In this document: piece by piece, positions 4,501 to 64,000 of the stretch
Numbering within the stretch: position 1 is the stretch's first letter
Layout of the letters: each line of letters opens with the position of its first letter
Origin: Shigella phage ESh27
Sequence record: ON528737
Direction: 5' to 3' (one strand)
DNA: 64,000 bases
Program-made: the position numbers and the translations under genes
The notes under the pieces: generated by a model
Told to the model about the DNA's origin: nothing
Databases searched by the model: none
The model's input: the letters and a program-made list of their open reading frames with translations, nothing else

Positions 4501-4686
4501 TGTATATCCTAAATTAGTCCATCTATAGCTATTACGGGGAATTGCTTCCCCGTTAGCTGTTTTGGTCTCAGCTATTTCCACAAAATAGTAGAAATTAGCG
4601 CCAACCTCATCCCAGCGAATTTGAACTTGGTTTGCGGACAATTTAGATAATCTGAGACTCGTGACTGCTGGCGCTTTTACTGTCAT
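1588..4686 (-). CDS. 7: baseplate wedge initiator gp7
   Basis: 1032-aa ORF, same length as T4 gp7; position between genes 6 and 8. Confidence 0.9.
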   Translation of the reverse strand: MTVKAPAVTSLRLSKLSANQVQIRWDEVGANFYYFVEIAETKTANGEAIPRNSYRWTNLGYTADNNFFESGLNSLTTYMMRVATAAEGFEQSDWRYTEEFETFEINAYTFQHMIEMQLANEFISEKFTKNNTNYVDFNNDTIMAALMSESFQFSPAYTDVSSIRNFIIGENQYHEIQGHIQDVCKDINRVYLMESEGILYLFERFQPIVKVSNDKGQTWKAVKLLNDRVGYPLSRTVYYQSEYTTYLLGYDKIFYGRKSSDIRWSADDVRFSSQDVTFAKIGDQLNLGFDVEIFGTYASLPGNVSRIAEAITCNDDYVYIAARDKVRFVKTSNAPIDSDPLSPTYSERLFEPETFTITGNPKAVCYKMDSVGGRIFALIIGEVENVNDDPRTKPILDSVDKGVYVLDHDAGTFKRIFGNTEEERRRIEPAFTNMSTDGVELYISSSNFKFLESDVVDDPETQSKYGLLGAVKYEYPREWLADKHYHMMIFASNEESNWETFSPTPMQYYAEPFFSYSRKSGTRSWINNSDRAVVIYSDLLYTKVVESHPSTSPDRKVHEYWNDGDCKIVMPNIEFTGFKKYASGMLFYKSSGEIISYYDFSYRVRDNVSIIWKPTNVFLTASLQNQEKETSWVPVEETGLADPDLRPLLTTMMPESYLLDNTNFEAFCEAYIQYLSDGYGTHYNNLLNLIKNKYPREEHAWEYLWSEIYKRNIYLNAEKRDLVSRFFESRSYDFYSTKGTEASYKFLFKVLYNEDVEVEIESSAGTEYDIIIQSDSISEDLVGQTIYTATGRCNVTYLERSYSKGKLQWTVTIHNLLGRLLVGQEVKAERLADFEGEIVRGIKGKELAQNTIDYFNRGRAYYVMKIKSNLPSSRWKSDVLRFVHPVGFGFIAITLLTMFINTGLTLKHVETIINKYKNYKWDSGLPTEYADRVARLDPQGNVEFNPVTGEVIYDAGPYAGIEYPLPANYNEENDNSIFQGQLPSERRKPMSPLFDASGTTFSRFRELVNERLLDNVGNPRDPINPPQVKLDE

Positions 4687-19288: not shown

Positions 19289-19891
19289 ATGCGAAACCAA
19301 AATAATGATATTGACTCAATGTTCGAAGAGTTCCGAGATAAGGTAAATCCACCTACGTCTTTAGTTGATTCATTACGATATGTTGCAACTGGACGTAAAT
19401 GGTATTGGTCGTCTTCTTATGAGACTACTGAGAAAACGGCTAGCCATAGCAGAAAATCTTTATTAGCCCCAGGTATTATGATTCATGATATCGGAGCTAT
19501 TGCTAAACTAGTTGCAGACCATGATATTAGATTCACTGATTTCGTTGCTCCTACGTGGTCTGTTTGTTGTTTAAACACTGAATGGGAATATATCAGCGAA
19601 CGCTCTGAAGATTATTATGGTTTTAGAGATAAGCTTTTAAGGTCTAACATGTTTTATATCGATACTGAAGTTCTAGTCGATAATAAAAAATATTACTTTA
19701 CGTTAATCGTCGATTCTGAAACTATGTATGAAGGCAAGCCTTTGCTTAAAAGAGTTGATGCTTTAAGTGCTATTGATGCGCTTTATGAAACTATGGTTGT
19801 TAGTCCTAATTTCACTAACAATTTAATCCTTGAGCAATTTATTATGGAATGTAGAGAATATGTCAAAGCCAACCCTGTACATGCCAATTAA
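19289..19891 (+). CDS. hypothetical protein
   Basis: AAAGGAG then ATG at 19289. Confidence 0.6.
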   Translation: MRNQNNDIDSMFEEFRDKVNPPTSLVDSLRYVATGRKWYWSSSYETTEKTASHSRKSLLAPGIMIHDIGAIAKLVADHDIRFTDFVAPTWSVCCLNTEWEYISERSEDYYGFRDKLLRSNMFYIDTEVLVDNKKYYFTLIVDSETMYEGKPLLKRVDALSAIDALYETMVVSPNFTNNLILEQFIMECREYVKANPVHAN

Positions 19892-24938: not shown

Positions 24939-25427
24939 ATGAATATATTTGAAATGCTTCGTAATGACGAAGGTCTTAGACTGACTTTATACAAAGACAC
25001 CGAAGGCTTTTGGACGATTGGCATAGGCCATTTGGTAACAAAGGACCCGTCTTTAGCCGTAGCTAAAGCTGAACTTGATAGAATGATCGGTCGTAAATGC
25101 AACGGTACAATTACCCTTGATGAGGCTGAAAAGCTATTTAATGAAGATGTTGATAAAGCCGTTCGCGGAATCTTGGGTAATGCTAAACTTAAACCGGTAT
25201 ATGATTCTTTAGATGCAGTTCGTCGATGTGCATTGGTCAATATGGTCTTCCAAATGGGTGTAGCAGGCGTTGCTGGTTTTACTAATTCTCTTCGTATGCT
25301 TCAACAGAAACGTTGGGACGAAGCGGCAGTAAATCTAGCCCAATCTAAATGGTATCGTCAGACACCTAATCGCGCGAAACGCGTAATCTCAACATTTAAA
25401 ACAGGAACTTGGAAAGCGTATATATGA
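24939..25427 (+). CDS. e: endolysin (T4 lysozyme)
   Basis: MNIFEMLR...DEAEKLFN...[22 protein letters not shown] matches T4 lysozyme. Confidence 0.96.
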
Positions 25428-25705
25428 AAACATATAGTGAATTTTTATCAGAATCTATTCTTAACGAAGCTACTGACACATTTGCAACTAAGCTAGGTGC
25501 AGCTTTGGTTGAAGCTGAAAGTCTATTAGCACGTATTTCTGAACTTGCTAGTAAGATAGATACTCGCAAATTTGAGCGCACCAGTGATATCGTTAAGCTT
25601 GAAGCACTGTTGCGTATGTGCGATAAACCAGAAGAAATCGCTAAGAACGGCTCGCTGATGAAACAACGTCTTGAAAAATATATTTCAGGCGCTTCAGAAA
25701 AATAG
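25424..25705 (+). CDS. internal-protein-like protein with CTS
   Basis: N-terminus [11 protein letters not shown]; ATGA overlap with gene e stop. Confidence 0.7.
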
Positions 25706-25706
25706 T

Positions 25707-25760
25707 GTTTACTTCCTCCAAGGACTTTGATACTATACATTCATCAACTACTTGGAGGAA
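25707..25760 (+). promoter_or_regulatory. early promoter inside a 10-bp inverted repeat that includes the denV SD
   Basis: GTTTAC 25707-12, TACTAT 25731-36; arms TTCCTCCAAG (25714-23) / CTTGGAGGAA (25751-60). Confidence 0.55.
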
Positions 25761-25763
25761 ATT

Positions 25764-26177
25764 ATGACTCGTATCAATTTAACACTTGTTTCTGAACTGA
25801 CTGACCAACATCTTATGGCTGAGTATCGTGAATTACCACGCGTATTTGGTGCAGTCCGTAAACATGTTCAAAACGGTAAACGTGTAAAGGATTTTAAAAT
25901 CTCTCCGACATTTATCTTAGGCACGGGTCACGTAACATTCTTTTACGACAAACTCGAATTTTTACGTTTACGTCAAATCGAGCTAATCACTGAATGCTTG
26001 AAACGTGGTTTCAAAATCAAGGACACGACAGTCCAGGATATTTCCGACATCCCTGCCGAATTTCGTAATAATTATGTCCCGTCCGAAGCGTCCATTGCGA
26101 TAAGTCAAGCACGCTTAGATGAAAAAATTGCTCAACGTCCGACTTGGTACAAATACTATGGTAAATCAATTTACTAA
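25764..26177 (+). CDS. denV: endonuclease V (pyrimidine dimer DNA glycosylase)
   Basis: [34 protein letters not shown]... matches T4 DenV. Confidence 0.96.
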
Positions 26178-36229: not shown

Positions 36230-37210
36230 ATGTTCAACGTTCAAATCAAAAAAGGTATCTATCGTAATAACGAAATCTCTGGTTCTTATGTTGCCACAAA
36301 GACATGGTTCCCGGCAAAGCTTAATCCTGAATGTTCCCACTTAGGTGACGGTAAAATTTTCGTTATGATTGATGGTTCTGAACGTGGAGTATGGGTCTTC
36401 AAATCAGACATCGTAATGGAAGGAGTTGAGACATCACCAGTTGCAGTTATTGAAAGCGCTGAAGATATGAAAACTCGTATCAACAAACGCTTTAAAGTAA
36501 TGAACATGATGACGAATGGCATTATCGATGGCAAAATTCGTTCACTCATTATTTCAGGTGCAGCAGGTATTGGTAAGACGTATTCTCTGGATAAAGCACT
36601 TAATAATGCTAATGATAATGGTTTCATCAAATACAAAAGCATTAATGGCAAAATCTCTGGTATTGGCCTTTACGAACAACTTTGGCTCAACCGTGATGCA
36701 GACAGCGTTCTCTTAATCGATGACGTTGACGTATTCTCAGATATGGATATCTTGAACCTTCTTAAAGCAGCATTAGATACTGGCGATAAACGCAAAGTTT
36801 GCTGGAGCACTGCATCATCTTATCTTGATGATAAGGGTATCGATAAAGAATTTGAGTTTGAAGGTACTATCGTTTTCATTACAAACGTTGATATCGATAA
36901 AGAGTTAGAACGCGGTTCGAAACTTGCTCCACACCTTCAAGCTTTAGTATCTCGTTCAGTGTATTTGGACCTTGGAGTACACTCTAATGAAGAGATTATG
37001 GTCCGAGTTGAAGATGTAATATTATCTACTGACATGATGCAGAAACGTGGTCTGACTGATGCTGAAACGTATAAAGCATTGTCCTGGATGAAGGCTAACA
37101 TATCTCGTCTTCGCAATGTATCATTACGTACGGCTCTTTATGTAGCAGATTTTATTTCAACTGATAAAGACGGTTGGGAGGAAATCTCCGAAGTAACTTT
37201 ACTGAAATAA
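36230..37210 (+). CDS. AAA+ family ATPase
   Basis: Walker A GAAGIGKT, Walker B VLLIDDVD, sensor-1-like FITN; 326 aa. Confidence 0.7.
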   Translation: MFNVQIKKGIYRNNEISGSYVATKTWFPAKLNPECSHLGDGKIFVMIDGSERGVWVFKSDIVMEGVETSPVAVIESAEDMKTRINKRFKVMNMMTNGIIDGKIRSLIISGAAGIGKTYSLDKALNNANDNGFIKYKSINGKISGIGLYEQLWLNRDADSVLLIDDVDVFSDMDILNLLKAALDTGDKRKVCWSTASSYLDDKGIDKEFEFEGTIVFITNVDIDKELERGSKLAPHLQALVSRSVYLDLGVHSNEEIMVRVEDVILSTDMMQKRGLTDAETYKALSWMKANISRLRNVSLRTALYVADFISTDKDGWEEISEVTLLK

Positions 37211-38284: not shown

Positions 38285-39280
38285 ATGAGCATTACATCTG
38301 ATGCGGTAAAACATGAAATTAACGGTTTATGTGCTTCACAGATTAAAGTGTGGTTTAAAGACCATAACGATCGCAGAGCACTTAATTATGAGCAAATTGC
38401 TATCCAAGTTCATCAATTACTGACTAGTAAATTTGATTTTCATATGCCGTCTGAAATCTATACTAATCTGCCGCGAGCACTTATTAAAGCGTGTAAAGGT
38501 TATGGAAAATCAATGGCTGATGGAATCTTCAGCGCGCTGAATAAACTTAACGTTCTGTCGATGATTAACTCTAACAACATCCTGCGTAATCTAGGACGTA
38601 CTGATTTGTTCGGTCGTGAACAGTGTAAAATGCCTTTGAAATGGATCGTTGCTCATCTTAACGAGAACCAAACACGTTTTATGGCTGTAACAGCACGTTT
38701 ACAAATGGGCCTAGATCGTCAGATGAACTTTAAAACTCATCCACGTTATTCAGGTTCAACAGACTTTTATAAATGCGAGCTTCAAAAGGTCGGTGGCAAA
38801 ACTGTCTTAGTAGTTCGTGTAACGTTTGAAGGACGACGTCAAGGATATTTTGACATAATCGGCTCTGGACTTAAACATTGCGGATTTATCGACGAAGTTG
38901 ATATCAAGCGAGACGGCATTGGATACCGTATTGGATATGTTTGTACTCTTAAAGAAGAGATTTCAGGACCAGCACCAGGACTAAAAGACGTTAGATATAA
39001 AGACGAGCTCGTCGAAGAAATAAAAGAAGTTGAATATGATATCAACCAAGAAGATGCTCTTAAAGACCTTATTGATGAACTGAACCAAGACGTTATTCCG
39101 GTTCAGAAATTTGAATCAAAACATGCTGAGCAAATCAAATACTTTGAAGCTTTGATTAACGAACTTAATGTAACTATTCAACAGACCGACGATGAAATCT
39201 CACGATTGGCCGGATTGAACGGCAAAAATAAAACAGAACGAGCTAATCTTATTCAAGTAGTAAAACTTCTTAAGGAATGA
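38285..39280 (+). CDS. hypothetical protein with C-terminal coiled coil (triplet member 1)
   Basis: 331 aa; last ~60 aa heptad-like. Confidence 0.6.
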   Translation: MSITSDAVKHEINGLCASQIKVWFKDHNDRRALNYEQIAIQVHQLLTSKFDFHMPSEIYTNLPRALIKACKGYGKSMADGIFSALNKLNVLSMINSNNILRNLGRTDLFGREQCKMPLKWIVAHLNENQTRFMAVTARLQMGLDRQMNFKTHPRYSGSTDFYKCELQKVGGKTVLVVRVTFEGRRQGYFDIIGSGLKHCGFIDEVDIKRDGIGYRIGYVCTLKEEISGPAPGLKDVRYKDELVEEIKEVEYDINQEDALKDLIDELNQDVIPVQKFESKHAEQIKYFEALINELNVTIQQTDDEISRLAGLNGKNKTERANLIQVVKLLKE

Positions 39281-48822: not shown

Positions 48823-48911
48823 AACTATCTCGAATTGCTATAACCGAAGAAAAGTTTGGTGAATTTTAAGTCGTCAACTTTATGAAAGTTACGTATCTTT
48901 GATAGTATCTC

Positions 48912-48957
48912 GTGCTTTAAGATAGGTCTCTAAATATTATGATATAATAGACCTATG
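48912..48957 (+). promoter_or_regulatory. candidate promoter with ATAGGTCT/AGACCTAT inverted repeat upstream of gene 55
   Basis: TATAAT at 48944-49; -35 assignment uncertain. Confidence 0.35.
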
Positions 48958-48977
48958 AATTGAGCCAAGAGGTACTT

Positions 48978-49535
48978 ATGACTGAACAAAAACCTAAAAA
49001 TAACTATGTGAATAATAAAGAGCTTCTCGCTGCTATAATCGAGTGGAAAAAGGAGCTCTTAAATAATAAAGACCCAAACAAAATTATTCGTCAGAATGAT
49101 ACCATAGGTTTAGCAATTATGCTTATCGCCGAAGGCCTGTCCAAACGTTTCAACTTTTCAGGATATACCCAGTCTTGGAAGCAGGAGATGATTGCAGATG
49201 GGATTGAAGCCTCTATTAAGGGACTTCATAATTTCGACGAAACTAAGTACAATAACCCACATGCATACATAACTCGAGCTTGTTTTAATGCTTTTGTCCA
49301 ACGTATCAAAAAAGAACGTAAGGAAGTTGCAAAGAAATATAGTTACTTCGTTCATAATGTCTACGACAGTCATGACGATGATATGGTAGCGTTGGTAGAT
49401 GAAACGTTTATTCAAGACATCTACGATAAAATGACGCATTATGAAGAATCCGCTTATAAAGCTCCTGGGGCTGAAAAGAAGGAAGTTGTTAGCGATTCGC
49501 CTAGTTTGGATTTTTTATATGAGGATGACAATTGA
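48978..49535 (+). CDS. 55: late-transcription sigma factor gp55
   Basis: 185 aa from [17 protein letters not shown]...; ...[24 protein letters not shown]... matches T4 gp55. Confidence 0.92.
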
Positions 49536-49734
49536 CATCTCTAACTACTTAGAAGAACCTTTTGACGAAGCAATCCCTTATTTGGTAAAACTGTTGGGTC
49601 GTGAATTTAAAATTAATTTTGACATCGACCCTTTGAACCCACATGACGTGTCATTTTCGATAAATGGGACTCCAGTTGAGTACGAGTTCTGTATTGAAGA
49701 GGATGGACGTTTTTATTTTAATTTAATGAGATAA
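49519..49734 (+). CDS. hypothetical protein (start uncertain)
   Basis: Overlaps the end of gene 55. Confidence 0.4.
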
Positions 49735-49735
49735 T

Positions 49736-50059
49736 ATGACTACCGAGATTATTGAAAATAAAGAAGCAGAAGATGCAGTAGCTAAAATGCTACAAGAAAT
49801 ACAAAAGAAAAATGAAGCTGAAGCACGTAAAAAATCCGAAAAGATTCTTAAAAAGAATCGTTTCGAACTAAATCGACTTTATGCTCATGCTCAAGAAGCA
49901 GCAATTCAAAACAACTTCGAAGCTTACGAATATGCTATTAAGAAATCTCGGGATATTCTACGACAACCATATAATGACAAGTTAATTAAAATCCAGTGGG
50001 TTACTACTCGTCAGGCTATTGAGGACATTATTAATGGCGCTAGTTCAAACAAAGTTTAA
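49736..50059 (+). CDS. hypothetical protein
   Basis: 107-aa ORF. Confidence 0.5.
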   Translation: MTTEIIENKEAEDAVAKMLQEIQKKNEAEARKKSEKILKKNRFELNRLYAHAQEAAIQNNFEAYEYAIKKSRDILRQPYNDKLIKIQWVTTRQAIEDIINGASSNKV

Positions 50060-50240
50060 ACGTCTGAATCTGAACGCAGGGTTCACCCTTAAATTGGGAG
50101 GTCCTCTTTGTGTTAAAATTTCCGAAAAGGAATATCACGACGGTTCTATTACAGAAATTTGTCCGCCTATTGTAAAGGCAGACCCAAAACAACTCGTGTG
50201 GGTTGATTCATTTCAAGTTAAGAAATGGTGGAAACGATGA
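50034..50240 (+). CDS. hypothetical basic protein
   Basis: ATG at 50034 overlapping upstream gene end. Confidence 0.4.
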   Translation: MALVQTKFKRLNLNAGFTLKLGGPLCVKISEKEYHDGSITEICPPIVKADPKQLVWVDSFQVKKWWKR

Positions 50241-50330
50241 TAACTTGGACAGGTGGCTAATGAAAGACGAACACCCGGATTTTTAAGCTTATGAATGACA
50301 AATACGAAAAAGTTTAAGGGGTCATATGAA

Positions 50331-50504
50331 TGACGAATTTGACGGATTTTGATAAGATTAAATCTGATAAAAATGAGATGATACTTCAATTTGAAGCCGC
50401 TCGTATTAAAGCAGAAAATGAAGGTACTATTACCCGTAAGAAAATCAAGTTCAGGTATAGTCACGAACCTCTATACGGTGTATTAATTGGAAAGGAAGCC
50501 TAGT
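50331..50504 (+). CDS. small ORF (57 aa)
   Basis: AAGGGG then ATG at 50331; below ORF-track cutoff. Confidence 0.35.
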
Positions 50505-50519
50505 GCTTCCTTTTTTTTT
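50494..50519 (+). terminator. rho-independent terminator
   Basis: GGAAGC-CTAGT-GCTTCC then T9. Confidence 0.6.
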
Positions 50520-50566
50520 GCTTTATATTCTGGATGATAAAATGAACCAACTAATGAGGAAAACAT

Positions 50567-50710
50567 ATGATTATATTTTTAGGTGTGACTATATTGATAT
50601 TAGCCTTCTATCTATTCACTAGGGCGTGTTGGATAGGTTTCTTTAGTACCCCAGATGGATTAATTTCTGTGGTTTTATTTTGCATTGCGATAACGGCGTT
50701 AGACTTATGA
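50567..50710 (+). CDS. small hydrophobic ORF (47 aa)
   Basis: GAGGAAAA then ATG; stop overlaps gene 47 start. Confidence 0.35.
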   Translation: MIIFLGVTILILAFYLFTRACWIGFFSTPDGLISVVLFCIAITALDL

Positions 50711-51726
50711 AAATTTTACATTTAGGTGACTTCCATATCGGCGTTAAACAGGACGACCCATGGGTTCAAGATATTCAACGTGATGGTATTCGTCAAGCAA
50801 TTGAATACTCTAAGAAACACGGGATTAAAACTTGGATTCAGTACGGTGATTGGTTTGACGTCCGTAAAGCAATTACACATCGTACAATGGAATTCAATCG
50901 TGAAATCGTTGATATGATTTCTAAAGCAGGCATTCACGTTCATGTCACGATAGGAAACCATGACATGGCGTTTAAGAATACAATAACACCTAACACTGTT
51001 TCTGAATTGTTAACACAATTTGAAAACTTTACTATTTACGAACATCCAACTACTGTAGATTTTGACGGATGTCTGATTGATATCGTTCCGTGGATGTGTG
51101 AAGAAAATACAGGTGAAATCTTAGAGCATATCAAGACTTCTTCTGCTGCGTATTGTGTTGGACACTGGGAACTGAACGGCTTCTATTTCTATAAAGGAAT
51201 GAAGTCTCATGGGCTTGAACCTGATTTCTTAAAGACCTATAAACAAGTCTGGTCCGGCCACTTCCACACAATCTCTGAAGCTGCTAACGTCAAATATATT
51301 GGGACACCATGGACCCTTACTGCAGGTGACGAGAATGATCCTCGCGGATTCTGGGTATTTGACACTGATGTTGAACGTATGGAATTTATTCCTAATGAAA
51401 CAACATGGCATCGACGAATCACTTATCCGTTTAAAGGCAAAATTAATTATTCTGATTATACTAATCTAGCCGTACGTGTTATAGTATCAGAAATTGATTC
51501 AGAGTTGACTAAGTTTGAATCTGAACTTGAAAAAGTAGTTCACTCTCTTCGTATGGTTTCTAAAGTTGATAACAGTGTTGAATCTGATGACGACCAGGAA
51601 ATCGAGATTAAATCACTTCAAGATATCATTAAAGAATATATTGACGCGATTCCAGATATCTCAGACGAAGACAGAGAAGCGCTGGTCAAATATTCCAACG
51701 AACTTTATATTGAGGCAACACAATGA
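50707..51726 (+). CDS. 47: recombination endonuclease subunit gp47 (Mre11-like)
   Basis: MKILHLGDFHIG... and GNHD phosphoesterase motifs. Confidence 0.9.
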   Translation: MKILHLGDFHIGVKQDDPWVQDIQRDGIRQAIEYSKKHGIKTWIQYGDWFDVRKAITHRTMEFNREIVDMISKAGIHVHVTIGNHDMAFKNTITPNTVSELLTQFENFTIYEHPTTVDFDGCLIDIVPWMCEENTGEILEHIKTSSAAYCVGHWELNGFYFYKGMKSHGLEPDFLKTYKQVWSGHFHTISEAANVKYIGTPWTLTAGDENDPRGFWVFDTDVERMEFIPNETTWHRRITYPFKGKINYSDYTNLAVRVIVSEIDSELTKFESELEKVVHSLRMVSKVDNSVESDDDQEIEIKSLQDIIKEYIDAIPDISDEDREALVKYSNELYIEATQ

Positions 51727-52206: not shown

Positions 52207-53891
52207 AATCATTTAAATTAAATCGTGTTCGTTATCAAAACATCATGTCGGTAGGTGGGAATCCTATCGATATCCAATTAGATAAAGTCCAAAAGACATT
52301 AATCACTGGTAAAAATGGCGGTGGTAAATCTACGATGTTAGAAGCCATTACTTTCGGACTTTTCGGTAAACCATTTCGTGATGTTAAGAAAGGACAAATC
52401 ATTAATAGCACGAACAAGAAAGAGCTCTTAGTTGAGCTTTGGATGGAATTCGATGATAAAAAATACTTCATTAAACGTGGCCAAAAGCCCAATATTTTCG
52501 AAATCTCCGTTAACGGTGTTCGTCTTGATGAATCTGCCAGCAGTCGCGACTTCCAAGAAGAATTTGAACGTAGCATCGGAATGTCATACGCGTCTTTTAA
52601 ACAGATCGTTGTGCTTGGGACGGCAGGGTATACCCCTTTCATGGCTCTTAGCACCCCTGCTCGTAGAAAACTTGTCGAAGACCTTTTAGAAGTCGGCACA
52701 CTTGCTGAAATGGATAAAATCAATAAGTCTCAAGTTCGCGAACTTAATTCCCAGGGACAAGTTCTCGATGCCAAGAAAGATGGTATTATCCAACAAATTA
52801 AGATTTATAACGAGAATATCGAACGCCAAAAGAAATTATCTGGCGATAATGTAGCACGTCTACAGAATATGTATGACGACCTAGCCAAAGAAGCTCGTTC
52901 ATTAAAAGCAGAAATTGAAGAAGCTAATGAGCGTCTACTTAATATCGTTCTTGACGAAGACCCTACTGAGGCATTCAACAAGATCGGACAAGAAGCATTC
53001 TTGATTAAATCTAAAATCGACTCATATAACAAAGTTATTAAGATGTATCATGATGGCGGCACGTGTCCTACTTGCGCATCACAATTGCACCAGGGTGACC
53101 CTATTGTCTCTAAGATTACCGATAAGCTTCATGAATGTAATCACTCATTCGAGCAACTTACCTGTCACAGAGATAATCTGAGTGTCCTAGTGGACGAATA
53201 TAGAGCTAACGTTAAGACTAAACAGGACCTTGCATCTGATATTCGTACAAAGAAACAAACAATGATTGCCACTATTGATAAAGCTAAGAAAGTTAAAGCT
53301 GCAATAGAGCAAGCCTCGGCTGAATTTATCGACCATGCCGATGAGATAGCTTTGCTTCAAAAAGAACTTGATAAAATCATTAAAACAAAATCGGATATCG
53401 TTCTTGAAAAATACCATCGTGGTATTATCACAGATATGTTAAAAGATTCTGGTATTAAAGGTGCTATCATTAAAAAATATGTGCCTCTGTTCAACAAGCA
53501 GATTAACCATTATCTTAAAATCATGGAAGCTGATTATGTGTTTTCTATTGACGAAGAATTCAATGAATCTATAAAATCACGCGGACGTGAAGATTTTAGT
53601 TATGCTTCATTTAGTCAAGGTGAAAAAGCACGTATCGATATCGCATTGTTGTTTACATGGCGAGATATTGCTGAAAAGGTTTCTGGTGTTAGAATCAATA
53701 CATTAATTATGGACGAAGTCATGGATTCCGCGACTGATTCTGAAGGTATTAAAGCTATTTCAACAATTCTTAACTCTCTAACCGATGCAAACGTGTTTAT
53801 AATTAGTCACAGAGACCATGACCCACAAGCTTATGGACAACATCTTCAGATGAGCAAAGTTGGACGATTTACTGTAATGACTGTTTCATAA
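52203..53891 (+). CDS. 46: recombination endonuclease subunit gp46 (Rad50-like ATPase)
   Basis: 562 aa; Walker A GKNGGGKST, central coiled coil with CPTC zinc hook, C-terminal LIMDEV. Confidence 0.9.
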   Translation: MKSFKLNRVRYQNIMSVGGNPIDIQLDKVQKTLITGKNGGGKSTMLEAITFGLFGKPFRDVKKGQIINSTNKKELLVELWMEFDDKKYFIKRGQKPNIFEISVNGVRLDESASSRDFQEEFERSIGMSYASFKQIVVLGTAGYTPFMALSTPARRKLVEDLLEVGTLAEMDKINKSQVRELNSQGQVLDAKKDGIIQQIKIYNENIERQKKLSGDNVARLQNMYDDLAKEARSLKAEIEEANERLLNIVLDEDPTEAFNKIGQEAFLIKSKIDSYNKVIKMYHDGGTCPTCASQLHQGDPIVSKITDKLHECNHSFEQLTCHRDNLSVLVDEYRANVKTKQDLASDIRTKKQTMIATIDKAKKVKAAIEQASAEFIDHADEIALLQKELDKIIKTKSDIVLEKYHRGIITDMLKDSGIKGAIIKKYVPLFNKQINHYLKIMEADYVFSIDEEFNESIKSRGREDFSYASFSQGEKARIDIALLFTWRDIAEKVSGVRINTLIMDEVMDSATDSEGIKAISTILNSLTDANVFIISHRDHDPQAYGQHLQMSKVGRFTVMTVS

Positions 53892-60097: not shown

Positions 60098-60733
60098 ATG
60101 AAAACTACTCCTATTACTATCGCTATTGACGCAATCATAAAACAAGCTTCTTCTTTGGCCGCTATGGCCAAAGTAATTAGTCAAAACCCTGCTCGTTATA
60201 ATGTTATTCTAGAAACACTTCGACGCCCTGGACTGAGTAATTATGAAAGTCGTGTAATTATTACAGGTGTTGGTAAGAACGCTAATATCGCAACTAAAGC
60301 TTCTGAGACATTTGCTTCACTCGGTATCCCAAGTATGTACTTGAACACCGGGCATTATTCTCACGGTGATGCAGGATTTATTGCGCCTAATGATGTGTTG
60401 ATTCATATTAGTCGTTCTGGTAAGACTGAAGAAATGATAGGTGTTGCTAAACATCTTCGTATGATTCGTCCTCAGGTTAAACAGATTCTGTTACATTGTA
60501 ACCCTGACATTCCACAAGAATACGAAGCTCTTTTTGATTATACGTTCTGTACCGGTATCGCGGTAGAAGTTGACGAGAACTCTTTAGCTCCGACTATGTC
60601 CACTACATTGTTGTTAGCGCTTATCGATACGTTTGCTATCAACCTTTCGTCTGAACGTGGATTTACCTCTAATGACTTCCTTAAGTTCCACCCTGGCGGT
60701 GCACTAGGTGCCATGTTACGAGGCGAACAATGA
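60098..60733 (+). CDS. SIS-domain sugar phosphate isomerase, KdsD/GutQ-type (putative D-arabinose-5-phosphate isomerase)
   Basis: VIITGVGKNANIATKASETFASLGIPS...HGDAGFIAPNDVLIHISRSGKTEE...LAPTMSTTLLLALIDTFA...HPGGALG pattern of API SIS domains. Confidence 0.8.
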   Translation: MKTTPITIAIDAIIKQASSLAAMAKVISQNPARYNVILETLRRPGLSNYESRVIITGVGKNANIATKASETFASLGIPSMYLNTGHYSHGDAGFIAPNDVLIHISRSGKTEEMIGVAKHLRMIRPQVKQILLHCNPDIPQEYEALFDYTFCTGIAVEVDENSLAPTMSTTLLLALIDTFAINLSSERGFTSNDFLKFHPGGALGAMLRGEQ

Positions 60734-60873
60734 AAGCAATAACAATAGGACTTTTACTATTGATGCTTGTCATGACTATCTACTGGAGCTTAACGGCTCC
60801 GGTAATGATTCCAACACTTGTAATTGGATGGATTATGATTGGTCTACAGGCAAAGTATGAATGCTTTAACTAG
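60730..60873 (+). CDS. small hydrophobic ORF (47 aa)
   Basis: ATGA overlap with isomerase stop; two hydrophobic stretches. Confidence 0.35.
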   Translation: MKAITIGLLLLMLVMTIYWSLTAPVMIPTLVIGWIMIGLQAKYECFN

Positions 60874-60914
60874 AATAGTGTACAATACACCTACTTACCA
60901 ATGAGGACTTCAAC

Positions 60915-62600
60915 ATGAAAAAAGCTGTTATTCTTGGTGCTGGATTGGCAACTCGTTTATATCCAATTACTCACCATATTCCAAAAGTTCTTGTGAACTA
61001 TAAACAAGACACTATTCTGAGCAATTTGTATACAATTTATTCTGACCTTGGCGCAGATGAAATTATTGTAGTAGTTCATTCAAAATTTGCTGAAACCGTT
61101 CGAGCTTATTGTGAGCAAGAAGGGTTCAATGTGACTATTCGTACAGTTGATGAAGCGTATGGTTCTGCTTATGCTCTTGCTAAATTACACAAAGATTTAG
61201 ACGGCCATAACGTAGTTGTTAACTGGTGCGATATTATTCCTGATTTTGGTTCATGGTCTTGGAATGTTAACGCAATCTATGTTAAGGGTGATGAATGTCG
61301 ATATAATTTCGATGGTGAAAATATCACTAACGTAGGTTCAACAGGCGGTAATGTTGTAGGAATTTATCAGTTCAAAGACTGGGAATTCTATATGGGTTCT
61401 ACTGATGAGGAAATTCATGAATACTGCAAAGGACGTGATTTCGTAGAATTCCTTTACAGCAGCGCATTCAATAAATCAGAGCTTATGAATCTAATTGATT
61501 TAGGTGATATGCCTAAACTTGAAAAAGCTCATGAAGTTCGTGAACTTAATCGTAGTTTTAATGCAGTTGAAATTGGTGAAGAAACTGTAACTAAATTCGC
61601 ATTAACTGAACAAGGTCGAGCTCTTCAAAAAGATGAGATTTCATGGTATTTGAAAGTGAAATCAGATTCAGTCCCTCAGTTAGTTTCTGTTAATGAAAAT
61701 AACTTTGAAATGGAACGCATTAAAGGTAAGCCAGCATTTGAATATATTAAATCCAAATCAAGTCTTGCTCGTCCACAAATTGTTGATGCAATTTTAGATG
61801 CACTGAAATTCAGCACAGACATTTATTTTGTAAGTCCTGAAACTGTTCGTCGTGATTTCACTAAAGAATTCTATACGAAAGTTATTGATCGTTGTGAAAG
61901 CATTCAACCATTGATTGATTCATTTGGTAAAATCACACATGTGAACTACACTAAGATTGGACGTCTGAAGCCAATGCTGAAACAAGCTTTAGAACATCTT
62001 ATTCGTTATCATAACCGTTCTCAGGGACAGTACTCTGTTATTCATGGTGACCCAAACTTCAGTAATACTATGATTACCGATAACGGCGAAGTCAAGTTTA
62101 TCGACCCTCGTGGATATTTTGGTGAAACCAAGATTTACGGGCCAAAATTGTATGATGAAGCTAAAGTGCTTTATGCTGTTTCAGGTTATGATGAATTCAA
62201 CGCTAATCCGACCTGGGGCCAGTTTATTATTGATGAAACAACTTGTAATGTGACTATTAACATCAATCCATTAGTTTACAAATATGGAAAGATGAGTTCG
62301 TTTAACGAGTATCATCATTTGGCAGTGGCAATTATCTGGATTGCATTAGGTGGTTATTTCAAGAATAATCCACTTAAAGCGGTAGCCGCATATTATAAAG
62401 GTATGGAACTTCTAACTAAGCAATTACGTAACATGGGCCGTGTACTTCAAGATGGCTCTATTAGTTATGACGTAGCAGAACCTGTAACGGCTACTCTGAT
62501 TACAAAAAATCCTGGTAAATGGGTACTAACTGATAAAGAAACTGGTGTTTCCTATCGTCCAATCGGTGGCGATATCACTCATCAATGGGAACGAATCTAA
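60915..62600 (+). CDS. bifunctional sugar-1-phosphate nucleotidyltransferase / sugar kinase (APH-fold)
   Basis: N-terminal ILGAGLATRLYPIT (RmlA-like G-x-G-T-R-L); C-terminal HGDPNFSN...FIDPRG kinase motifs; 561 aa. Confidence 0.75.
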   Translation: MKKAVILGAGLATRLYPITHHIPKVLVNYKQDTILSNLYTIYSDLGADEIIVVVHSKFAETVRAYCEQEGFNVTIRTVDEAYGSAYALAKLHKDLDGHNVVVNWCDIIPDFGSWSWNVNAIYVKGDECRYNFDGENITNVGSTGGNVVGIYQFKDWEFYMGSTDEEIHEYCKGRDFVEFLYSSAFNKSELMNLIDLGDMPKLEKAHEVRELNRSFNAVEIGEETVTKFALTEQGRALQKDEISWYLKVKSDSVPQLVSVNENNFEMERIKGKPAFEYIKSKSSLARPQIVDAILDALKFSTDIYFVSPETVRRDFTKEFYTKVIDRCESIQPLIDSFGKITHVNYTKIGRLKPMLKQALEHLIRYHNRSQGQYSVIHGDPNFSNTMITDNGEVKFIDPRGYFGETKIYGPKLYDEAKVLYAVSGYDEFNANPTWGQFIIDETTCNVTININPLVYKYGKMSSFNEYHHLAVAIIWIALGGYFKNNPLKAVAAYYKGMELLTKQLRNMGRVLQDGSISYDVAEPVTATLITKNPGKWVLTDKETGVSYRPIGGDITHQWERI

Positions 62601-62986
62601 TGCACCGTGTAGAAAACATGCTTAATCTTTGTTTTGATGTCGATGATTGTATAACAGAGTGGAATAACAATCGTGATTATGTGAACTTCAAACCGGACGT
62701 CGAAATGGTGTCCGCCATTAATGCCCTGTATGATGCAGGGCACACCATAACGCTTTACACGGCTCGTGGTATGAAGTCTGTAGGACCTGGTCGTATAGCA
62801 ATTGACATTCTCCCGAGTCTGATTCAGAACTTGGAAAACATTGGTTTGAAGTACCATAATTTGCTAACACATAAACCAGTATATGATTGGATTATCGACG
62901 ACAAAGCTATGCGTCCTGACGAATTCAAAGCTCTTATGAATAAAGGCGAATTCGAAACATTTAAATCATATAAACCGAATCTATAA
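62600..62986 (+). CDS. HAD-superfamily phosphatase-like protein
   Basis: N-terminal LCFDVDDCIT resembles HAD motif I; start set at ATG overlapping upstream stop. Confidence 0.55.
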   Translation: MHRVENMLNLCFDVDDCITEWNNNRDYVNFKPDVEMVSAINALYDAGHTITLYTARGMKSVGPGRIAIDILPSLIQNLENIGLKYHNLLTHKPVYDWIIDDKAMRPDEFKALMNKGEFETFKSYKPNL

Positions 62987-63043
62987 TAATTTAAGTAAGA
63001 CCTGCAAAAACCATCGCATCAATTAACGTGAGATGCAAAAAAA

Positions 63044-64000
63044 ATGAATACTTTTAAAATCGGAACGAATTTTGATTTAGCTCTTCTTGATAAAATCGTA
63101 GAGCTCAATAAAACCTATCCTAATAGCTTGATAAACGAAGTATATGGCTCTACAAGAGAAATGGCTTTTGTAGCAGCCAGACCTGATTTTAGGCTTCCTG
63201 ACGTCGACAAAAAGATGTTAGAAGACTATGTTAAACGTTGTAACGAATTAGGTATTTGCTTTAACTATACACTCAACACGATAAATCCTGGTTCAAAAAG
63301 AGAACTAGTTGAGTGGAAGAAGAAAGCTATTCAGGATTATGTTCAGTATCTTTGGTCAATAGGCGTATGGCGTATTACTATCGCTAACCCTGTTGTTATG
63401 GAAATTGTTCGTGAAGTCAATAAAGATATTGAGATTGAAGTTTCAACAATTCTACATGTTGATGCCGTAACTCAAATCAAATACTTACACGACCAATATA
63501 ACATCAAAAAGGTCTGCTGTGGAATTCATAAGAACCGTTCAGTTTCTTTCCTGAAGCGTGCAGCAGAGTTTTGCAATAAGAACAATATAATATTTGAAGT
63601 TCTTGTAAATGAGTTCTGTTCTAATGCTGGTAAAGGGTATACAACACATTGTAGCTATCGTGACTCTTGCTATATTTTCCATAGTACTGATGTTACAGCT
63701 GATGATGCTAAATCCTTAAATGGATATCCAATGCAACACTGCATTAAAGCTCGTGATACAGACCCATTTAACTGGCTGAGAACTCGTTTTGTTCGTCCTC
63801 AAGATTTGAAACTTTATAATGATATTGGTATCACTCAATTCAAAGTTTCAGGACGTACAGGTAGCACAGACTACATTTTGAAAGTTCTTGAAGCATACGC
63901 TTCTGAAAAGTTTGAAGGTAATTTGTTAGAACTGTGGAAGCCTTTAGAGACTATTTTCACTCTTGAAAATGAGACTGAGTTTTCACATACAGTAAATATT
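63044..64000 (+). CDS. U32-family-like protein (partial, runs off window end)
   Basis: No stop before 64000; ...YTLNT..., ...IANPVVMEIVRE..., Cys-rich EFCSNAGKGYTTHCSYRDSC recall the U32 family; assignment tentative. Confidence 0.45.
   Translation, partial: MNTFKIGTNFDLALLDKIVELNKTYPNSLINEVYGSTREMAFVAARPDFRLPDVDKKMLEDYVKRCNELGICFNYTLNTINPGSKRELVEWKKKAIQDYVQYLWSIGVWRITIANPVVMEIVREVNKDIEIEVSTILHVDAVTQIKYLHDQYNIKKVCCGIHKNRSVSFLKRAAEFCNKNNIIFEVLVNEFCSNAGKGYTTHCSYRDSCYIFHSTDVTADDAKSLNGYPMQHCIKARDTDPFNWLRTRFVRPQDLKLYNDIGITQFKVSGRTGSTDYILKVLEAYASEKFEGNLLELWKPLETIFTLENETEFSHTVNI

Follow-up and report, generated by a model that had tools for sequence, protein, structure and literature searches.

In phage T4 the interval between genes 55 and 47 holds, in this order, a-gt.5, a-gt.4, a-gt.3, a-gt.2, mobB, a-gt and 47.1, with the alpha-glucosyltransferase gene a-gt (400 aa) placed between the two anchors just as an earlier note on this DNA had stated. 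According to published work, RB69 has none of the genes a-gt, b-gt and ba-gt (PMC6024577), and its DNA is reported to contain arabinosylated 5-hydroxycytosine (PMC13326640). An empty a-gt slot is nevertheless no proof by itself that glucosylation is absent, and phages such as CC31 lack a-gt yet contain b-gt and ba-gt homologues (PMC6024577). Changes in gene content between related T4-type genomes have also been described in connection with PeSL/PmSL cassettes, in which a stem-loop followed by a promoter stands at the boundaries of ORF-level indels (Arbiol et al., 2010, PMC2839356; Comeau et al., 2014, PMC4122927). They were reported chiefly from hyperplastic regions, in association with early promoters, and as a family repeated within a single genome; a version of the cassette with a Mot box (PmSL) has been described as well (PMC2839356; PMC4122927).

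The 64-kb stretch of DNA analysed here (the window) originates from a Mosigvirus, a T-even relative of the RB69 type. Its best DNA matches are Mosigvirus genomes (98%), and its proteins are 97.6–100% identical to those of RB69 across the region, the arabinose-nucleotide genes included. Our overall explanation of the locus, which we consider very probable, is that of a Mosigvirus carrying a conserved array of small genes without mobB and a-gt, a single terminator–promoter module, and arabinose chemistry in place of the T4 scheme. The absence of a-gt is in itself the documented state of RB69-type phages and is already known.

The small genes between 55 and 47

The earlier note had reported five short ORFs between genes 55 and 47, and these are indeed present on the + strand, with lengths of 71 or 69, 107, 68, 57 and 47 aa (Table 1). 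They run from the first ATG of the first ORF at 49519 to the end of the stop codon of the last at 50710. No gene of glycosyltransferase size is found among them, again as reported: the longest coding-strand ORF has 107 aa and the longest antisense ORF, which is unsupported, has 83 aa. The synteny comparison with T4 that had been proposed as a check shows that the five are one-to-one collinear homologues of T4 a-gt.5, a-gt.4, a-gt.3, a-gt.2 and 47.1 (45–76% amino acid identity), in an unchanged order and comparable in size and overlap. T4 differs by the presence of just two more genes, mobB and a-gt, between a-gt.2 and 47.1; at this point the window has a 63-nt spacer, which holds the single hairpin–promoter module described below. 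The description of the interval as an a-gt slot holding only small ORFs therefore needs to be divided. The gene is absent, as claimed, but the ORFs are no substitute for it; since T4 has the same five around its a-gt, the slot proper is confined to the 63-nt spacer at 50504–50566.

Table 1. Features of the 55–47 interval and of the arabinose-nucleotide module (positions in the window).
Feature	Position	Strand	Description
Gene 55, late sigma factor, left anchor	48978–49535	+	89–91% aa identity to T4 gp55, 99.5% to RB69 gp55
a-gt.5 homologue (DUF5491)	49519–49734	+	71 aa; 45% identity to T4 a-gt.5, E = 2e-15
a-gt.4 homologue (DUF2654)	49736–50059	+	107 aa; 58% identity to T4 a-gt.4, E = 6e-37
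a-gt.3 homologue	50034–50240	+	68 aa; 69% identity to T4 a-gt.3, E = 8e-33
a-gt.3/a-gt.2 spacer	50241–50329	+	a-gt.2 ribosome-binding site and start repeated twice more in degenerate form
Mosaic patch: a-gt.2 allele, terminator–promoter module, 47.1	50241–50705		465 nt replacing 281 nt of RB69
a-gt.2 homologue (DUF5486), divergent allele	50330–50503	+	57 aa; 55% identity to T4 a-gt.2
Intrinsic-terminator-like hairpin	50489–50519	+	11-bp stem, 5-nt CTAGT loop, nine-T run
MotA-type middle promoter (predicted)	50519–50543	+	MotA box (ttt)TGCTTTA 50519–50525, 12-nt spacer, -10 TAAAAT 50538–50543
47.1 homologue	50567–50710	+	47 aa; 76% identity to T4 47.1, E = 4e-24
Gene 47, SbcD-like nuclease subunit, right anchor	50707–51726	+	76% identity to T4 gp47, 100% to RB69 gp47
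Arabinose-nucleotide ('sugar') module	60098–64000	+	Pfam SIS, NTP_transferase, Peptidase_U32

Three of the five products match Pfam models over their full length and above the gathering cutoff, namely the homologues of a-gt.5 (PF17595, 49.5 bits against a cutoff of 27), a-gt.4 (PF10849, 96.6 bits against 25) and a-gt.2 (PF17588, 63.8 bits against 27). PHROG families were assigned to a-gt.5 (phrog_1169) and a-gt.4 (phrog_951), and with full-length matches to a-gt.3 (phrog_1648, E = 1e-33) and 47.1 (phrog_6693, E = 2e-27). The a-gt.5 homologue is 100% identical to RB69p070; relatives annotate its start at 49525, which gives 69 aa, and the start at 49519 yields a protein beginning MRMTI..., like the MRLTI... 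of T4, with a 17-nt overlap with gene 55 that is also present in T4. Apart from the cyanophage, all genera sampled have a homologue of a-gt.4 in the 55–47 interval. A single-sequence AlphaFold model of the window protein is all-helical, with four predicted helices (pLDDT 75), and a Foldseek search of the PDB with this model gave no match better than E = 4. The equivalent model of the a-gt.3 homologue, which is 98.5% identical to RB69p068, was unusable (pLDDT 48.5). The 47.1 homologue is predicted to be a two-pass membrane protein, and two transmembrane segments are noted in the record of the relative Mizar; its TGA stop codon overlaps the ATG of gene 47, the product of which matches Pfam Metallophos. 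Comparison of all five small proteins with PDB sequences returned nothing better than E = 0.7, the PADLOC defence models gave no matches, and a literature search on a-gt.2, a-gt.3, a-gt.4, a-gt.5 and 47.1 found no paper in the library searched that names two of them.

Glucosyltransferase searches and the arabinose pathway

Four glucosyltransferases were used as tblastn queries: T4 Agt, T4 Bgt, the Agt of Mineola (Jiaodavirus) and the T2-type beta-alpha-GT of RB27. None gave a significant match in the interval or in the 64-kb window. Absence beyond the window was judged from two relatives, TH12 (90–97% nucleotide identity to the window, with several indels) and Mizar, and the same queries found no glucosyltransferase in the complete TH12 genome or in Mizar 1–42 kb; the best E value over the window and these two relatives was 0.068. 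The search with T4 Agt and Bgt suggested by the earlier note was thus negative both in the window and in TH12. With Bgt and beta-alpha-GT as queries, no E value below 1.4 was obtained in the window, TH12 or Mizar 1–42 kb; the slot occupied by b-gt in T4 lies past the window end and was looked at in Mizar only. When the 1.4-kb interval was searched alone, the Agt queries from T4, RB27 and Mineola reached an E value of 0.02 at best, and no Pfam glycosyltransferase domain was found in the five small ORFs. The window contains no homologue of Agt, Bgt or beta-alpha-GT. A weak Agt match at 19376–19555 (E = 0.068) lies in a 207-aa ORF with no Pfam family; the match is absent from TH12 and was taken as chance. 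Agt homologues were found in 657 records of the phage collection and showed either at least 90% identity (Tequatrovirus among the matches listed) or about 66% (Klebsiella Jiaodavirus among the matches listed), the remainder comprising two at 80–90% and ten below 60%. Records bearing gp47 number roughly 2,300.

The small ORFs could in principle be fragments of a decayed a-gt gene, a reading suggested by a weak BLAST similarity of the first ORF to Agt residues 300–342 (E 0.006–0.02, in very small databases only). A profile–profile comparison of the a-gt.5 family with Agt using hhalign, however, returned a probability of 0.1%, and the proposed relationship was rejected. The searches of the interval gave no glucosyltransferase homologue, the finding that the earlier note had named as a refutation. 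In addition, each ORF has a full-length T4 homologue that coexists with an intact a-gt in T4, and the ORFs fall in Pfam and PHROG families of their own. Decay of a-gt into these ORFs is refuted, and we give it practically no weight.

A different objection is that a glucosyltransferase is still encoded, either relocated in the genome or too diverged to detect, in which case the empty slot would be uninformative on modification. The readable part of the genome is only 64 kb, and GT-B enzymes of RB69-type phages do escape BLAST and Pfam. Mizar003 and Mizar041, for example, have no Pfam match, and their RB69 counterparts have been modelled as glycosyltransferases (PMC13326640). These hidden GT-B proteins were nonetheless assigned as arabinosyltransferases in that work (PMC13326640), and RB69 DNA has arabinose, not glucose (PMC6024577; PMC13326640). 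Together with the negative searches of complete TH12 and of Mizar 1–42 kb, this makes a concealed glucosyltransferase very improbable in our estimation.

The window itself encodes an arabinose-5-P isomerase (SIS), a nucleotidyltransferase/kinase and two further proteins, one small and phosphatase-like, the other U32-like and truncated where the window ends. These are 97.6–99.7% identical to RB69p055, p053/p052, p051 and p050, and we follow the roles proposed for them in PMC13326640. The genes for NDP-arabinose synthesis in the RB69-type arabinosyl-5-hydroxycytosine pathway are accordingly present in the window. Mizar has counterparts of the 5hodCMP synthase (Mizar042, a Thymidylat_synt protein with 25% identity to T4 gp42) and of the DNA arabinosyltransferases (Mizar041 and Mizar003); the genes for both functions lie outside the window, the transferases by their position in relatives. 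Since its proteins are so nearly identical to those of RB69, in which the chemistry was measured, arabinosylated 5-hydroxycytosine is expected to take the place of cytosine in the window phage. The genes at 60.1–64 kb would provide part of this pathway, and no alpha-glucosyltransferase would be needed. The view that the phage does not use the T4 glucosylation scheme, which the earlier note had put forward, is supported by the lack of any Agt, Bgt or beta-alpha-GT match and by the arabinose-nucleotide genes shared with RB69.

The terminator–promoter module and the mosaic patch

The strong terminator previously noted in the interval is real as a sequence feature. The stem-loop occupies 50489–50515 and the T run 50511–50519, and the folding dG is -13.3 kcal/mol (z = -2.9 against shuffles). 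The stop codon of a-gt.2 is inside the hairpin loop, and the 5' arm of the hairpin encodes the end of a-gt.2. A GC-rich hairpin with another stem sequence is found at the same position in T4, RB27, Mineola, PEi20, NBG1, SP18, DP45 and GAP161. With its GC-containing stem-loop, direct U-run and conserved structure, the element is a good candidate for an intrinsic terminator. An Rfam scan of 48900–51000 produced a sub-threshold miRNA match only (E = 0.18).

The sequence tttTGCTTTA, followed after 12 nt by TAAAAT (50516–50543), fits the MotA promoter consensus of (a/t)3TGCTTtA, 12 ± 1 bp and TAtaaT (PMC2988021). Transcription is predicted to start near 50550, and a Shine–Dalgarno sequence, GAGG, at 50556–50559 serves 47.1. 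The motA gene lies outside the window, and the close relative TH12 encodes a MotA homologue (51% identity, E = 6e-54). This promoter aligns with the module that follows T4 a-gt.2, which is the mapped PmobB/Pa-gt.1 with its start at 38682. The second T4 module, P47, is missing from the window: it starts at 36576, within 47.1, whereas the window promoter is upstream of the 47.1 ribosome-binding site. The MotA pattern occurs five times in the window, in every case on the + strand, against 1.07 expected. No such hairpin was found at the other four sites, and the hairpin–promoter module is thus not a repeated element within the 64-kb window. In having a stem-loop and then a promoter at the boundaries of ORF-level indels between related genomes, the arrangement resembles the PeSL/PmSL cassettes; those described previously are repeated and mainly linked to early promoters, and here one copy with the hairpin was seen in 64 kb.

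From the sequence and by analogy with T4, termination and promoter activity, including dependence on MotA, are predicted at this site in vivo. Transcription coming from the direction of gene 55 and crossing the four a-gt.x genes would stop at the hairpin and, once MotA and AsiA appear, RNA polymerase would restart about 30 nt downstream of it. The restarted transcript would cover 47.1, 47, 46.2, 46.1 and 46, that is, the recombination nuclease genes.

The module also falls within a 465-nt patch that is Gaprivervirus-like and unlike RB69, set in an otherwise RB69-like region. RB69 shares the gene order around it (annotated in its own record as RB69p066–p071: 47, a-gt.2, a-gt.3, a-gt.4, a-gt.5 and 55), likewise lacks a-gt, and has gp55, a-gt.5, a-gt.4, a-gt.3 and gp47 that are 98.5–100% identical to those of the window. 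The differences are an a-gt.2 allele with only 54% identity to that of RB69 and NBG1, a longer a-gt.3/a-gt.2 spacer, another terminator stem, and the extra 47.1, which is missing from RB69, NBG1 and most Mosigvirus genomes. The spacer has 50 nt more than in most Mosigvirus genomes, and direct repeats at 50251–50271 and 50290–50303 match the real a-gt.2 start region at 50317–50338. With blastn the patch finds no counterpart in RB69, and identity in the flanks is 97–99%. Only about five phage records match the patch at 90% identity or more, and the next-best matches are SP18, TH15 and LHE83 (82–84%). Gaprivervirus SP18 provides the closest DNA to a-gt.2 outside the phage's own lineage (84%) and has the same arrangement of 55, a-gt.5 to a-gt.2, an unannotated 47.1, and 47. 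Its 197-nt gap before gene 47 matches the terminator, promoter and 47.1 of the window, with 84% DNA identity over 82% of the patch. SP18 belongs to another genus, however, and its flanking genes are far less similar to the window than are those of RB69.

Origin of the empty site

The survey of the interval took in nine more genomes, which represent eight other genera and a second Mosigvirus. In the a-gt-bearing Tequatrovirus and Jiaodavirus, a-gt lies between two hairpin–promoter modules, whereas the window phage and the other a-gt-less genera have one. The same leader precedes a-gt in RB27 and Mineola, mobB in T4, 47.1 in the window and SP18, and 47 in RB69, NBG1 and PEi20. Among the Straboviridae sampled, the empty a-gt slot is the commoner state.

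This distribution could have arisen by secondary deletion, with an ancestor of Mosigvirus that had a-gt between two copies of the module and recombination between these copies that removed the gene cleanly and left one module behind. The T4, RB27 and Mineola a-gt genes are flanked by two similar modules, each consisting of a GC hairpin (TTCG loop), (T/A)GCT(T/A)T... and a -10 element, and recombination of just this kind is what the published PeSL/PmSL model envisages. Moreover, the 67% identity between T4 and Mineola Agt is comparable to that of core genes (gp47 71%, gp55 78%), and Mosigvirus is nearer to T4 (gp47 76%, gp55 89%) than Mineola is, so that a simple tree places a-gt in the common ancestor. 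That tree, however, comes from two core genes only, in genomes that are mosaic. The gene is absent from all outgroups sampled (Krischvirus, Pseudotevenvirus, Lazarusvirus and a cyanophage) and also from Kanagawavirus and Gaprivervirus. In the gp47 comparison Jiaodavirus falls together with Kanagawavirus (75%), which has no a-gt, and loss would therefore need at least two or three independent events. No remnant of a-gt is detectable either, a search of the interval for a-gt or mobB remnants (tblastn, word size 2, E up to 100) having given only noise. We hold deletion as a tentative possibility, somewhat short of an even chance; if it took place, it would have accompanied a switch of the lineage from hmC to 5-hydroxycytosine chemistry.

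It may equally be asked whether the site was ever occupied. One module before 47 or 47.1 would then be ancestral, and an a-gt cassette with its own module would have been inserted in Tequatrovirus and Jiaodavirus. The Straboviridae do form a nested series, starting from 55 directly beside 47 in a cyanophage and continuing with two small ORFs in Krischvirus, Pseudotevenvirus and Lazarusvirus, four in Kanagawavirus and Mosigvirus, and four together with 47.1 in Gaprivervirus and the window, with a-gt in two genera only. The mobB gene of T4 further shows that the junction accepts insertions. This history nevertheless requires two gains, or one gain and an ancient transfer, and the agreement between Agt and core-gene divergence fits vertical descent at least as well. 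We rate its chances as close to evenly balanced.

A broader proposal is that the leader upstream of 47/47.1, made up of hairpin, MotA promoter and Shine–Dalgarno sequence, acts as a constant site of recombination where entire ORFs are swapped precisely at the start codon, and that loss or gain of a-gt there accompanied the change between hmC-glucosyl and 5hoC-arabinosyl chemistry. We regard this as rather unlikely. If it were true, the swapped ORFs would be a-gt in Tequatrovirus and Jiaodavirus, mobB in T4, 47.1 in Gaprivervirus and the lineage of the window, and 47 in RB69, and the Gaprivervirus-like 465-nt patch would have arisen by a recent swap of this kind.

The comparison illustrates how T4-type phages gain and lose accessory genes at terminator–promoter junctions, a principle already published for the PeSL/PmSL cassettes. 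The locus bears out the assignment of the window to an RB69-type phage, and beyond correct annotation its importance is small. For the biology of the phage, the main implication concerns its DNA, which, as in other RB69-type phages, is expected to be protected from restriction enzymes and Cas nucleases by arabinosylated 5-hydroxycytosine, not by glucosyl-hmC. Arabinosylated DNA of this kind would bear on host range and phage engineering, and on which enzymes are chosen to handle the DNA.

Gene content between genes 55 and 47

Five short ORFs lie between gene 55 and gene 47, one-to-one and collinear with small genes of T4, in which the order is 55, a-gt.5 (72 aa), a-gt.4 (105), a-gt.3 (67), a-gt.2 (63), mobB (264), a-gt (400), 47.1 (46) and 47. 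Compared with T4, the window lacks exactly mobB and a-gt, the alpha-glucosyltransferase gene, and the real 'slot' is the 63-nt spacer at 50504-50566. An earlier note, whose bounds (49519 and 50710) run from the initial ATG of the first ORF to the last ORF's stop codon, had described five short ORFs and a strong terminator, with no glycosyltransferase-sized gene where T4 has an a-gt of about 400 codons. All of this holds, including the absence of any ORF of that size from either strand of the interval. Its phrase that the slot 'holds only small ORFs' is correct as to their presence, but T4 carries all five small genes as well as a-gt and the ORFs are therefore no stand-in for it. For the first ORF, 49519 is the probable start: its MRMTI... 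N-terminus parallels MRLTI... in T4 and the resulting 17-nt overlap with gene 55 is as in T4.

Features of the 55-47 interval
Feature	Position	Strand	Remarks
gene 55	48978-49535	+	
a-gt.5 homologue (first short ORF)	49519/49525-49734	+	71 or 69 aa; 45% identity to T4 a-gt.5
a-gt.4 homologue (second)	49736-50059	+	107 aa; 58% identity to T4 a-gt.4
a-gt.3 homologue (third)	50034-50240	+	68 aa; 69% identity to T4 a-gt.3
a-gt.2 homologue (fourth)	50330-50503	+	57 aa; 55% identity to T4 a-gt.2
hairpin	50489-50515		11 pairs, 5-nt loop, then nine T
MotA box tttTGCTTTA	50516-50525	+	directly 3' of hairpin
-10 element TAAAAT	50538-50543	+	12 nt after MotA box
GAGG	50556-50559	+	downstream of -10, ahead of 47.1 ATG (50567)
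47.1 homologue (fifth)	50567-50710	+	47 aa; 76% identity to T4 47.1
gene 47	50707-51726	+	

Three of the five ORFs pass Pfam gathering cutoffs (DUF5491, DUF2654, DUF5486) and all match PHROG families of unknown function; a-gt.5 to a-gt.2 are already named in the RB69 GenBank record, and the record for Mizar mentions T4 matches. The five proteins gave no PDB sequence matches and no defence-system matches, and a literature search found no papers naming a-gt.2-a-gt.5 or 47.1. For the a-gt.4 homologue a helical structure is predicted, and a fold search gave no informative match; the model of the a-gt.3 homologue was too low in confidence for use, and 47.1 is a hydrophobic peptide predicted to cross the membrane twice.

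Just upstream of gene 55, ~184 nt of RB69, TH12 and Mizar are absent from the window (48823-48977, break at 48900/48901). The missing sequence is most of a 270-nt ORF (RB69p072/Mizar066), and the remnant kept in the window precedes a TGCTTTA box (48913-48919), itself ahead of an extended -10, TGaTATAAT (48941-48949).

Glucosyltransferases and DNA chemistry

The region is 98% identical at the nucleotide level to Mosigvirus genomes (best CCU7, Mizar and TH12), and gp55, gp47 and gp43 are 99.5%, 100% and 99.7% identical to those of RB69. As the earlier note had proposed, tblastn was run with T4 Agt and Bgt (beta-glucosyltransferase), together with RB27 Agt, RB27 beta-alpha-GT and Mineola Agt; the targets were the window, the complete TH12 assembly (90-97% identical across most of the window length) and Mizar 1-42 kb, and no significant glucosyltransferase match was obtained. 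The best match (E = 0.068) fell at 19376-19555, inside a 207-aa ORF without a Pfam family. A recurrent weak match between the a-gt.5 homologue and Agt residues 300-342 was rejected (profile-profile probability 0.1%). In the phage collection, 657 records contain a T4 Agt homologue, nearly all at >=90% or ~66% identity (two at 80-90%, ten at <60%); among the Agt matches listed, the upper band is Tequatrovirus and the ~66% band Klebsiella Jiaodavirus.

The window's sugar genes encode an SIS isomerase and a nucleotidyltransferase/kinase, along with one U32-like protein and one small protein that is phosphatase-like. At 60098-64000, identity to RB69p055, p053/p052, p051 and p050 is 97.6-99.7%. The near-identical RB69 counterparts of the sugar genes are proposed to make NDP-arabinose (PMC13326640). 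RB69 was reported to contain arabinose and to lack a-gt, b-gt and ba-gt homologues (PMC6024577), and a later report describes mono- and poly-arabinosylated 5-hydroxycytosine in its DNA, derived from 5hodCMP made by a thymidylate-synthase homologue (PMC13326640). In line with the published reassignment of its RB69 counterpart as a 5-hydroxy-dCMP synthase, the Mizar gene in the T4 gene-42 position (Mizar locus 25174-25890, outside the window) is only 25% identical to T4 gp42, the dCMP hydroxymethylase. The absence of an Agt/Bgt match and the RB69-like arabinose genes, with the chemistry measured in RB69, thus support the view that this phage does not use the T4 glucosylation scheme. Both the feature and the conclusion that the note drew from it stand, but this restates published knowledge: annotation of RB69 already shows the a-gt-less state, and the literature explains it.

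A MotA-type pattern (TGCTTTA, 12 nt, TACAAT) at 60862-60886, between the SIS arabinose-5-P isomerase and nucleotidyltransferase genes, suggests from sequence that the arabinose module is partly expressed as middle genes.

The interval across genera

Gene 55 abuts 47 in cyanophage S-RIM12, and two small ORFs separate them in GAP161 (Pseudotevenvirus), MIZ6 (Krischvirus) and DP45 (Lazarusvirus). PEi20 (Kanagawavirus) and most Mosigvirus have a-gt.5 to a-gt.2, to which SP18 (Gaprivervirus) and the window add 47.1, Mineola (Jiaodavirus) a-gt, RB27 (Tequatrovirus) a-gt and 47.1, and T4 these two plus mobB. Among the genomes sampled, the a-gt position is thus more often empty than occupied. Mosigvirus and Kanagawavirus, which lack a-gt among the genera sampled, are assigned to the 5-hydroxycytosine type (PMC13326640). 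Mosigvirus may have lost a-gt, as the T4-Mineola Agt divergence (67%) parallels that of core genes and Mosigvirus is closer to T4 than Mineola is; equally, it may never have had the gene, with gain in other lineages, as favoured by outgroups without a-gt and by the affinity of Jiaodavirus and Kanagawavirus.

The predicted terminator-promoter junction

The hairpin (-13.3 kcal/mol; z = -2.9 versus shuffles) holds the a-gt.2 stop codon within its loop, and the sequence behind it matches the T4 middle-promoter consensus in MotA box, spacing and -10 (PMC2988021). The window has five instances of the fixed-spacer MotA pattern, each on the + strand, where 1.07 would be expected, and TH12 encodes a MotA homologue. 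The hairpin would stop transcription arriving from the gene 55 side and the promoter would restart it for 47.1, 47, 46.2, 46.1 and 46. A MotA-type promoter pattern also lies inside gene 46 (53353-53377), where T4 has mapped internal middle promoters (P46i).

After a-gt.2, T4 has GGAGC-TTCG-GCTCC, TATAT, TGCTTTA, 12 nt and TAAAAT, coinciding with PmobB/Pa-gt.1, a promoter whose start is mapped to 38682, and a second, similar module 3' of a-gt is P47 (start site 36576). Because the P47 start lies inside the 47.1 ORF (T4 locus 4580-4644, - strand), T4 47.1 is not expressible from it; the sole predicted promoter at the window junction, unlike P47, precedes the 47.1 ribosome-binding site. In RB27 and Mineola a-gt is flanked by a module on either side, whereas RB69-type NBG1, PEi20, SP18 and the window have a single one. 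Across the genomes compared, the stems vary in sequence while pairing and position are kept, and the common leader is followed by a-gt, mobB, 47.1 or 47. The annotated Mineola a-gt start (Mineola locus 2547) falls within the hairpin and MotA-box module; since homology to T4 Agt only begins at 2601, the annotation probably includes 54 nt too many at its 5' end (2547-2600).

A 465-nt patch (50241-50705), bounded by the stop codon of a-gt.3 and the start codon of gene 47, finds no nucleotide counterpart in RB69, with both flanks 97-99% identical. It comprises a divergent a-gt.2 allele (54% identity to that of RB69), a different terminator stem and 47.1, which is missing from RB69 and most Mosigvirus genomes. 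At >=90% identity it is shared by only about five Mosigvirus records; next are the Gaprivervirus-like SP18, TH15 and LHE83 (82-84%). Within its spacer (50241-50329) the a-gt.2 start region recurs in two additional, degenerate copies, so that ribosome-binding site and first codons occur three times (degenerate at 50251-50271 and 50290-50303, functional-looking at 50317-50338); the first degenerate copy opens a mini-ORF, MKDEHPDF*, resembling the T4 a-gt.2 N-terminus.

What is added to existing knowledge is the exact junction anatomy and the Gaprivervirus-like patch only. The patch has the look of a small replacement by recombination at this junction, in keeping with the published proposal that modular shuffling in T4-type phages proceeds through terminator-promoter cassettes (PMC2839356, PMC4122927).
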